Under the pieces are notes generated by a model that saw only the letters and a list, made by a program, of their open reading frames with translations, ran no database searches and had not been told where the DNA came from. From sequence record OK335775.1: a stretch of DNA of 64,000 bases. One strand, given 5' to 3'. The position numbers and the translations under genes are program-made. Shown here one piece after another: positions 29,352 to 31,007 of the stretch (the first letter of the stretch is position 1; each line of letters opens with the position of its first letter). The stretch is from Escherichia phage PSD2002.

Positions 29352-29525
29352 ACCAAATTTGACCAGACTATTCCTAAAAATAGTAATATGCTTTAAGAGT
29401 AATGTGTTATTATTACTCTATCATTAATACCCTCTATTACCAAAGGTTCTTCCCTCAAAGAACCTTTCATAATAGACAAGGTCTATTAATCAAACTTACT
29501 TTACTTAATTTTATTTGAGGTGTTT

Positions 29526-29792
29526 ATGTTAGTATTAAAATTAGCTTTTTATGACCCGGCAACCAAGACAACAACAACCAAACGTTGTTCTATTTCATAT
29601 GAATGTCAATTTGGTGAAGTTGAGACCGACGGCGGGCCCTTTATGGCAATTGCCGATAGCACATTCGCTAAACCAAAAATAATTCCACTAGTTAACGCTG
29701 CGGCTTATCTGGTTGCTCCTGAAGAAATGACTTATCACACAATTCAGCACATGGCTAAAGATGATAATGCTCCTGCTGGATTTGTAGTTTAA
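29526..29792 (+). CDS. hypothetical protein
   Basis: ORF with SD GAGGT 5 nt upstream of ATG 29526; immediately precedes tRNA genes. Confidence 0.45.
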   Translation: MLVLKLAFYDPATKTTTTKRCSISYECQFGEVETDGGPFMAIADSTFAKPKIIPLVNAAAYLVAPEEMTYHTIQHMAKDDNAPAGFVV

Positions 29793-29797
29793 ATTAA

Positions 29798-29874
29798 GGC
29801 CCTGTAGCTCAATGGTTAGCAGCAGTCCCCTCATAAGGGAAAGGTTACCAGTTCAAATCTGGTCCGGGTCACCA
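29798..29874 (+). tRNA. tRNA, anticodon CAU (Met, or Ile if lysidine-modified)
   Basis: Hand-folded cloverleaf: acceptor GGCCCTG/CCGGGTC, D-loop AATGGTTAG, anticodon loop CU-CAU-AA, T-arm ACCAG-TTCAAAT-CTGGT, encoded CCA. Confidence 0.7.
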
Positions 29875-29879
29875 ACTAT

Positions 29880-29954
29880 GTCCCGCTGGTGTAATGGATA
29901 GCATACGATCCTTCTAAGTTTGCGGTCCTGGTTCGATCCCAGGGCGGGATACCA
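29880..29954 (+). tRNA. tRNA-Arg (anticodon UCU)
   Basis: Hand-folded: acceptor GTCCCGC/GCGGGAT, anticodon loop CU-UCU-AA, T-arm CCTGG-TTCGATC-CCAGG, encoded CCA; T4 also encodes tRNA-Arg(UCU). Confidence 0.75.
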
Positions 29955-30335
29955 AATGAAGACTATTATATAGTCAAGCCGTCGTATGAAGACTGATTAC
30001 CAGCATTCACCGGCGCAACAAACAAGAAACCGGGTCGCTACCGGTAAGTCGTCGGACTGATGTTCCCTGAGTAAGGACTGGCATTAACAAATCTTTACGA
30101 TCTGTTAACGTTCCCTTACATCACAGCAGAAACGGCGCACCGAATTATCGATTCGAGGAAATATCTTTGCCGTAAGCCGAGTAGCGTTTTTGACGGAACG
30201 TTCGGATATGGTCGAGATATGGCCTTTTAAAAATATTGAGTGGCGTCAACTACTTAATAACCGGGTTCGAATCCCGGCGTTTCGTACAAACACTTGCCTA
30301 GCAGGTGGAACCCCGACAAGGTTACCCTAGGTTAA
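29955..30335 (+). ncRNA. candidate structured stable RNA(s) downstream of tRNAs (contains an orphan tRNA-like T-arm)
   Basis: About 380 nt with no ORF of 60 aa or more in a gene-dense genome; perfect T-arm CCGGG-TTCGAAT-CCCGG at 30261-30277; ends at a terminator; T4 has stable RNAs C/D in its tRNA region. Confidence 0.3.
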
Positions 30336-30364
30336 AGGCCCTTCCGAAAGGTTGGGCTTTTTTT
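30336..30364 (+). terminator. rho-independent terminator (copy 1 of a duplicated terminator)
   Basis: GGCCC-ttCC-GAAA-GGtt-GGGC followed by TTTTTTT. Confidence 0.7.
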
Positions 30365-30399
30365 GTATAAATATGTAGTAAACTAACTTAGGAAATAAT

Positions 30400-30864
30400 A
30401 TGAAAACTTACAATGAATTTTTGACTGAACAATCTAGTTCAGATGTAAAAGCCGCTGCTATTGCAGCAATTCAAGCAGGTAAATATTCTTACAAAGACGC
30501 CTCTGATGAAGAACGTTTCCGTTTTATTAAAGATTTTAAAGCCGAAGGTTTTACTAATGCTAATACTGTTAGCCGAGTTTTTAAAAGCCTAGCTGCATCA
30601 GGTGAATTGTTCCAGAAAGCTACAGGTAAAGCACCTGCGTCAAAAGCGGACCCTAAAGCCGCTCAAGAAAAAAATATCGCCAAAGGAATTATTTCTAAGT
30701 ATGAAGCAATTCTTAAAGAGCTTTTAGTAATCAAAACAGAAGGCCAGAAACTGGCACGAGCACATAGCTTCAAAGATAATCCACATGCTCACGACTTAGA
30801 GTATGTTGAAGATATTCAGAAAATCATCAAAGACCGTATCTGGTCTGCTAAACAAATCAAATAA
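30400..30864 (+). CDS. CTS-bearing protein (predicted capsid-packaged internal protein)
   Basis: Starts MKTYNEFLTEQ; 154 aa, Lys/Ala-rich. Confidence 0.6.
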   Translation: MKTYNEFLTEQSSSDVKAAAIAAIQAGKYSYKDASDEERFRFIKDFKAEGFTNANTVSRVFKSLAASGELFQKATGKAPASKADPKAAQEKNIAKGIISKYEAILKELLVIKTEGQKLARAHSFKDNPHAHDLEYVEDIQKIIKDRIWSAKQIK

Positions 30865-30978: not shown

Positions 30979-31007
30979 AGGCCCTTCCGAAAGGTTGGGC
31001 CTTTTTT
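30979..31007 (+). terminator. rho-independent terminator (copy 2, near-identical to 30336-30364)
   Basis: AGGCCC-ttccgaaaggtt-GGGCCT followed by TTTTTT. Confidence 0.7.

Follow-up and report, generated by a model that had tools for sequence, protein, structure and literature searches.

Probable T4-type rnaD and rnaC RNAs at the distal end of the tRNA genes of a T4-like Escherichia phage, with a comparative model of their folds

Phage T4 has two small stable RNAs, rnaC and rnaD, that have been recognised since the 1970s. We report that a noncoding stretch of 445 nt (positions 29955-30399) in a 64,000-nt window from Escherichia phage PSD2002 (sequence record OK335775.1; the window is the whole stretch of DNA that was analysed, and all positions refer to it) contains two RNAs that align over their full lengths with T4 rnaD and rnaC, and that lie in the same place and on the same strand. 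We put the probability at roughly 85% that the stretch represents this phage's T4-type rnaD and rnaC at the distal end of the tRNA transcription unit, before a 3' trailer and a terminator. A preliminary description, made from the sequence alone, had listed three options for this region: the counterpart of T4's two stable RNAs, a tRNA that has degenerated, or a new structured RNA. Our data agree with the first of these, and the last can be set aside since both RNAs are known and annotated in T4 and RB3. Its more general statement, one noncoding stretch with one or more likely stable RNAs, holds in that rnaD and rnaC are found there; they are, however, two separate RNAs accompanied by a spacer and a trailer.

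Annotation of the locus and comparison with T4

The order of the features, i.e. tRNA-Arg, rnaD, rnaC, trailer and terminator, as well as the strand, is common to the window and T4 (Table 1). In the T4 annotation (NC_000866) rnaC covers 70908-71046 and rnaD 71053-71171, adjoining tRNA-Arg, and the RB3 record (KM606994) has tRNA-Arg, rnaD (as "species II RNA") and rnaC annotated beneath the match to the window. Identity to T4 is 100% for tRNA-Arg (75/75 positions), 98.6% for rnaC and 86.7% for rnaD, compared with 65.6% and 69.3% for trna.2 and trna.3, the neighbouring protein genes; hence, rnaC is as tightly kept as a tRNA. Moreover, the covariance models R1 (rnaC) and R2 (rnaD) score the window RNAs at 168 and 157.4 bits, respectively, and rnaC of the window fits every helix of the covariation-supported family model discussed below. 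As elements, rnaD and rnaC are of an already known kind, and annotating them in the window is routine. With respect to differences, rnaD starts 1-2 nt after the CCA of the tRNA in T4 and RB3 (1 nt in T4), whereas a 67-nt spacer intervenes here, and its 3' end reads CACCG as compared to CACCA in T4. The gap before rnaD is a positional difference and gives no reason to doubt homology.

When the 445-nt stretch was used as query in blastn searches it matched 800 phage records and was 99.8% identical to Escherichia phage QL01 (Dhakavirus); the window comes from a T4-like phage. ARAGORN predicted neither a tRNA nor a transfer-messenger RNA (tmRNA) in 29955-30399, and Rfam at the gathering score gave nothing beyond tRNA-Met and tRNA-Arg. 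A permissive Rfam search (E<=10, 29700-30500) returned noise only, the best match, tRNA-Sec, scoring 16.6 bits where the threshold is 47, and neither of the two Rfam scans had a Y RNA match. A canonical tRNA or tmRNA was therefore rejected as the identity of rnaC. These scans were among the checks suggested in the preliminary description; no overlooked canonical tRNA came to light in 29955-30399, and its statement that D and anticodon arms cannot be recognised is in keeping with the negative ARAGORN and Rfam results. It was likewise correct that no open reading frame (ORF) of 60 amino acids (aa) or more is present in the stretch: ORFs of 21-46 aa occur on both strands, the longest being 46 aa.

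The gap after the tRNA genes is filled by two known RNAs of the T4 family that most records leave unannotated or mislabel. Few records label rnaC or rnaD (T4, RB3, RB5, ATK47 and GiZh), and in many records of T4-like phages "hypothetical protein" coding sequences are annotated over them. In Enterobacter phage vB_Ecl_id4496 (L027, 1047-1141) the 3' part of rnaC has been called as a 95-nt tRNA-Met. Neither RNA is represented by a family in Rfam 15.

Table 1. Features of the tRNA and stable RNA locus, with the predicted structural parts of rnaC
Feature	Position	Strand	Description
tRNA-Met (CAU)	29798-29874		ARAGORN and Rfam
tRNA-Arg (UCU)	29880-29954	+	ARAGORN; RF00005, 48.8 bits; CCA encoded; last tRNA before the stable RNAs
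Spacer	29955-30021	+	67 nt, separating tRNA-Arg and rnaD; lacking in T4 and RB3
rnaD homolog (T4 species 2 RNA)	30022-30141	+	~120 nt; 104/120 (86.7%) identical to T4 rnaD
rnaC homolog (T4 species 1 RNA)	30148-30286	+	139 nt; 137/139 (98.6%) identical to T4 rnaC
rnaC, P1 acceptor-like stem	30149-30155 / 30278-30284	+	CGAUUCG / CGUUUCG; 7 bp with two conserved central U.U
rnaC, long arm A	30162-30226	+	D-arm position; ~65 nt, irregular; loop UUGACG at 30190-30195
rnaC, arm B	30234-30259	+	Anticodon-arm position; 10-bp stem; 6-nt loop CGUCAA at 30244-30249
rnaC, T-arm	30261-30277	+	CCGGG-UUCGAAU-CCCGG; 5 bp, 7-nt loop; preceded by two A's
3' trailer	30287-30333	+	Hairpin CACUUGC-CUA-GCAGGUG at 30291-30307; downstream of rnaC in T4-type phages
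Intrinsic-terminator-like hairpin	30334-30364	+	AAAGGCCC-UU-CC-GAAA-GG-UU-GGGCUUU and U7 run; from the predicted fold

Predicted fold of rnaC and contact between its loops

Homologs of rnaC were gathered by blastn walks, by pattern scans of IMG/VR and of metagenomes, and with the covariance model R1, resulting in 33 distinct sequences. These represent Tequatro-, Dhaka-, Gapriver-, Karam-, Kanagawa-, Winkler-, Moon-, Gelderland-, Mosuguk- and Marfavirus, and also include Edwardsiella phage PEi20 and Citrobacter phage Ursula. Our model predicts that rnaC folds into a cloverleaf-like four-way junction, resembling an oversized tRNA. The minimum free energy fold of the single sequence has a z-score of -4.25, and RNAalifold (27 sequences) and the manual model give the same architecture. 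In the 33-sequence alignment, which was fitted to the model and hence leans towards it, 92.4% of the cells at the 46 proposed pairs are paired, compared with 36-49% in slid controls. An alignment of 27 of the sequences generated with MAFFT gives the same picture. The preliminary description had suggested covariation analysis against related phages as a check, and compensatory changes uphold the fold: 29 of the 46 pairs have two-sided changes, and none of 500 shuffles reached the observed values.

Specifically, the third pair of P1 is G-C in 22 homologs, A-U in ten and G.U in one, Pectobacterium phage PM2, in which both U.U are replaced by U-A and the first pair by A-U. Arm A consists of a helix GG..AUAUCU/AGAUAU..CC, a helix CCGUA/UAUGG and a hairpin AGCGUUU-UUGACG-GAACGUU; in its helices 3-5 two-sided changes were found at all 16 pairs, with 87-100% of the cells paired. 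An A/U linker of 12 nt separates it from arm B, where nine of the ten stem pairs show two-sided changes. The middle pair of the T-stem is U-A in 17, G-C in 13 and A-U in one of the homologs, and the T-arm runs directly into the 3' strand of P1, after which follow a discriminator-like U (30285) and an A (30286).

The T-arm was present exactly where the preliminary description had placed it (CCGGG-TTCGAAT-CCCGG), and what appeared there as an orphan is in our model a real T-arm that belongs to rnaC and is stacked on its P1 stem. The partly pairing acceptor-like stem noted at the same time does exist; its 5' strand, however, is the far 5' end of rnaC and not the nearby ACGGAACG (30194-30201). Inspection by eye, the tRNA-Sec model and one annotation pipeline all settle on the latter. 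As an acceptor strand we rejected it: in KaAlpha, Kosakonia 305, the Marfavirus clade and PM2 it is replaced while the 3' strand of P1 persists, and in Karam-type sequences the pairing would include an A.C mismatch. In our model ACGGAACG forms the 3' strand of the arm A hairpin that carries the loop UUGACG.

The loops of arm A and arm B are exact reverse complements of each other in 32 of the 33 homologs, and 99.5% of the loop-loop cells are paired as compared to 17-50% when slid. In the clade of Klebsiella phages (Marfavirus; five sequences) both loops have changed, to UUGGCG and CGCCAA, such that an A-U pair becomes G-C, and the same double change is present in two further metagenome sequences. 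On this basis a putative 6-bp kissing contact between the two loops is likely. The cloverleaf model with kissing loops may be previously undescribed: there is no Rfam family, and the searchable papers contain no structure.

Several of these characteristics are shared with tRNA (RF00005), i.e. a 7-bp acceptor-type stem made from the ends of the molecule on a 5-bp T-stem with the 7-nt loop UUCGAAU, the four-way junction, the location in tRNA arrays and, in some clades, a UCCA tail. In contrast to tRNA, rnaC is 139 nt long and has neither a D-arm nor a 7-nt anticodon loop, and it has a 12-nt linker and tandem U.U. Moreover, its tertiary lock would be the loop-loop helix between arm A and arm B and not an elbow formed by the D- and T-loops.

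rnaD, the spacer and the distribution of the two RNAs

The model of rnaD is that of a separate structured RNA with a 5' hairpin and a long stem closed by its own 3' end. The 5' hairpin (ACCGG-GUCGCUA-CCGGU, 30029-30045) has 5 bp and a 7-nt loop, and the closing helix GUCGUCG (30048-30054)/CGGCG-C-AC (30133-30140) ties the body to the 3' end; further in are a helix of 4 bp (UGUU/AGCA) and a long hairpin at the centre, whose sequence differs between lineages. The 5' and 3' modules are identical to those of T4, whereas the central hairpin has diverged. Similarly, 19 close homologs have identical 5' and 3' modules and three unrelated central segments, and the 17 homologs that were folded have one common architecture despite three unrelated central hairpins. 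At one position of the 4-bp helix, nine of the 19 sequences have U-A, six A-U and three U.U, and none has A.A. R2 detects diverged relatives of rnaD in Marfavirus and in Moonvirus-like and Karamvirus-like phages, where they lie within tRNA arrays. Compensation is seen in these at hairpin 1, at the closing helix, where G-C has become C-G, and at the 4-bp helix. Together the alignments point to rnaD as a conserved structured RNA family that is wider than blastn suggests. An rnaD-like RNA was also noted on the minus strand of L016 (600-890).

The spacer between tRNA-Arg and rnaD was found only in 26 Dhakavirus-type records, at an identity of at least 98.8%. Its sequence comprises a 5' hairpin GACUAU-UAU-AUAGUC followed by AAGCCGUCG...GACUGAU...ACCAGCAUUCACCGGCGCAAC, and read directly from the sequence these modules are alike to AAGUCGUCGGACUGAU...ACAGCAGAAACGGCGCACC in rnaD. 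The spacer also folds as a miniature of the rnaD architecture (z = -3.38), and it looks like a truncated duplicate of rnaD.

The 3'-domain pattern of rnaC had no match in 185,579 bacterial species-representative genomes, and a scan of metagenomes yielded 12 loci with no new rnaC clade. A first, loose pattern run on IMG/VR returned 109 stretches that were mostly due to chance; five were new homologs. At this search sensitivity the rnaC family appears confined to T4-like phages of Enterobacterales. R1 also gives weak matches to true tRNA-Gln genes, and a 28.6-bit match considered as a second rnaC copy in L016 was rejected as such a tRNA-Gln.

Among close relatives rnaC behaves as a presence/absence cassette. 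It is cleanly absent from four T4-like IMG/VR genomes (L131-L134), in which rnaD is joined to the trailer (…GCGCAC-CGAA-CACUUGCC…) and rnaD, trailer and terminator are retained; two of the four carry the Dhakavirus spacer. Two others, L129 and Yersinia phage vB_YenM_P8 (L006), have unrelated DNA and an ORF after rnaD, in place of rnaC.

In related genera, further RNAs that look structured occupy gaps of ~150-300 nt inside the tRNA arrays. One of these, in Kosakonia phage Kc304 (L004, 1042-1205), ends with ...CCCACCA just before rnaC. T4-like tRNA arrays may carry additional unannotated stable RNAs.

Proposed maturation and role of rnaC, and the flanking elements

In Karamvirus, Winklervirus, Gelderlandvirus and others, rnaC lies within the tRNA array on the same strand, and outside the T4-type genera it follows the CCA of one tRNA by a few nt, with tRNA-Trp or tRNA-Gly beginning 2-8 nt beyond it. 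Most homologs, including that of the window, have UACA as the tail after P1, and the Klebsiella-phage clade and PM2 have UCCA. The position in the arrays, the UCCA tails, the 95-nt tRNA-Met call, the weak R1 matches to tRNA-Gln genes and the acceptor/T-arm helix fit an excision of rnaC by RNase P together with 3' trimming, as far as the sequences tell. We propose that rnaC would be transcribed as part of the tRNA precursor and, owing to an acceptor/T-arm helix that resembles that of a tRNA, be excised by the tRNA-maturation enzymes of the host. The 5' end would then be generated by RNase P, and the 3' end by trimming or, in other genera, by the RNase P cut of the tRNA 2-8 nt downstream, while the loop-loop contact could lock the body into a compact, nuclease-resistant particle. 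In T4, a dimeric precursor composed of species 2 and species 1 is cut by RNase P.

Non-tRNAs with an acceptor/T-arm-like module that make use of the tRNA maturation enzymes include the tRNA-like domain of tmRNA and the C4 antisense RNA of phages P1 and P7, the latter being named among the non-tRNAs processed by RNase P (PMC11143913). rnaC differs from tmRNA in that it has no tag reading frame or pseudoknot ring, in line with the ARAGORN and Rfam results, and from C4 RNA in having no known antisense target. Another relevant example is YrlA, a bacterial Y RNA-like RNA, which is a stable noncoding RNA containing a T-arm module like that of a tRNA and probably acts by protein binding. The ends of YrlA form the Ro/Rsr-binding stem and the tRNA-like part is internal, whereas in rnaC it is the ends that form the acceptor stem.

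T4 remains viable when the tRNA region is deleted as a whole. Published reports describe RNAC and RNAD as having unknown roles (PMC3014915, 2010; PMC9697503, 2022; PMC12685909, 2025), and in the searchable literature from 2010 to 2025 we found no structure, and no function for rnaC/rnaD beyond "unknown". T4 RNAC and RNAD have been classed as late RNAs, which is reported to have been validated by Northern blot with an RNAC probe, and by the same blot rnaC is reported to accumulate in T4 as a stable RNA of ~140 nt (PMC9697503). The question of their function dates from the 1970s, and the comparative model supplies concrete mutants and natural variants with which to address it. Testable handles include the U.U-containing acceptor-like stem, the complementary loops, for which a compensatory variant occurs in nature, the UCCA tails of some clades and the relatives from which rnaC is cleanly deleted.

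We tentatively suggest, as a minority prospect, that rnaC acts as a tRNA mimic which binds or titrates a tRNA-recognising protein, rather than as a decoding or message-pairing RNA. The stronger form of this suggestion, that rnaC is a purpose-built tRNA mimic, locked by its kissing loops, which serves as decoy or inhibitor of a host factor that recognises tRNA, is more speculative still and rather unlikely. Candidate targets would include a defence nuclease that cleaves tRNA, or an enzyme that matures or charges it. Such a decoy role, if true, would explain why rnaC travels with phage tRNA arrays and why it is gained and lost between close relatives.

A number of observations weigh against the reading of the locus and of rnaC given here. 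In this phage both RNAs are predicted from the sequence, with ends taken from the T4 annotation. With respect to tRNA likeness, 32 of the 33 homologs have two U.U in the acceptor-like stem, the 3' tail of the window rnaC is UACA and not NCCA, and the T-loop sequence is non-canonical in approximately eight of the 33; consequently, full tRNA-like recognition of rnaC is not guaranteed. The loop-loop contact is likely rather than proven since its support consists of a single evolutionary event plus invariance, and the invariance could reflect binding of another partner; moreover, PM2 retains only four of the loop-loop pairs. Only 2 nt separate arm B from the T-arm, and an intramolecular kiss therefore needs arm A to be bent back; an intermolecular kiss in a dimer is equally allowed. 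The clean absence of rnaC from four genomes and its replacement in two others (see above) indicate that it is accessory and not essential.

The main rival of the tRNA-mimic reading is a role in processing or stabilisation in cis only, which we consider doubtful. According to this alternative, rnaC and rnaD act as structured end-pieces of the tRNA operon transcript that provide processing sites for RNase P and the trailer nuclease and block 3' exonucleases, thereby letting the tRNAs upstream mature efficiently, and the excised RNAs are by-products without a role of their own. It would be in keeping with the finding that rnaC and rnaD are always located within a tRNA array or at its distal end, with the strand in common, that a clean loss of rnaC leaves rnaD, trailer and terminator in place, and that a conserved trailer and terminator close the unit in T4-type phages. 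However, a mere spacer would not need 98.6% conservation, invariant complementary loops or junction nucleotides such as CGRUUCGAGGA. In other genera rnaC is situated mid-array and cannot shield a 3' end there, and in T4 the excised RNAs build up as stable species (PMC9697503).

Less probable is that rnaC or rnaD regulates by base pairing in trans, with the loops UUGACG and CGUCAA pairing with host or phage mRNAs or tRNAs. Most homologs have these loops in invariant form, and the nested fold leaves them exposed; in an evolution experiment in which a T4-like phage adapted to a semi-permissive host, a convergent single nucleotide polymorphism arose in rnaD (PMC12685909). On the other hand, loops that are exact complements of each other and that have changed together in one clade are what mutual pairing predicts, and not what is predicted for two independent targets.

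That the T-arm region is a functionless tRNA pseudogene, decaying after a duplication, is highly improbable. A perfect T-arm and an acceptor-like stem are present beside real tRNA genes, some pipelines call a tRNA or pseudo-tRNA here, and rnaC has been lost in some relatives. It is, however, conserved like a true tRNA across genera while the neighbouring genes are only 66-69% identical, and the compensatory changes at 29 of its 46 helix pairs include the non-tRNA arms, which contain the best-supported helices. The tRNA-like conservation and the compensatory changes argue against a decaying pseudogene, and the degenerate tRNA offered in the preliminary description is accordingly not supported.

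Least credible is an overlooked small protein-coding gene, which the preliminary description had named among the findings that would refute its reading: in spite of the small ORFs on both strands, the hypothetical proteins annotated in many records and one marginal PHROG match (E = 0.016 over 12 residues), no frame is open across the 33 homologs (the minimum stop-free stretch being 11-24 aa in all six frames), the variable columns lack a 3-base periodicity (36/37/38), the substitutions are compensatory in RNA helices, the small ORFs of the region have no Pfam match, and the GenBank "hypothetical protein" features over the stretch are most likely miscalls.

Downstream of rnaC, the 80 nt with the trailer hairpin and the terminator are 85.4% identical to T4, and the trailer hairpin would be an RNase III site in a 10.1S precursor. 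The preliminary description was right that the region ends in a terminator: the hairpin and its U7 run are homologous to the perfect T4 hairpin GCCCCGACCGAAAGGUUGGGGCUUUUU. In contrast to T4, the stem in the window has an internal UU/UU mismatch, which is why a simple terminator scan missed it. In our model this element marks the end of the tRNA and stable RNA transcription unit.

A 21-nt core of the terminator, GGCCCTTCCGAAAGGTTGGGC, occurs twice, at 30337-30357 and at 30980-31000, where no repeat is expected by chance (0 expected). The two copies flank an ORF of 154 aa (30400-30864) that is absent from this place in T4 and RB3; by sequence, it looks like a gene cassette that was inserted or duplicated together with a copy of the terminator. 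Just upstream of this ORF, TATAAATA at 30367-30374 matches the T4 late-promoter consensus.

At the other end of the locus the window has two tRNA genes (Met-CAU and Arg-UCU), compared with eight in T4 and ten in RB3. An ORF of 90 aa (29520-29792) is positioned directly upstream of the tRNA-Met/tRNA-Arg pair, and the intergenic region ahead of it (29352-29519) contains TATGCTTTA followed by TATTAT ~12 nt further on, which resembles a MotA-dependent middle promoter of T4. The same intergenic region also has a hairpin, AAAGGTTCTT-CCCTCA-AAGAACCTTT.

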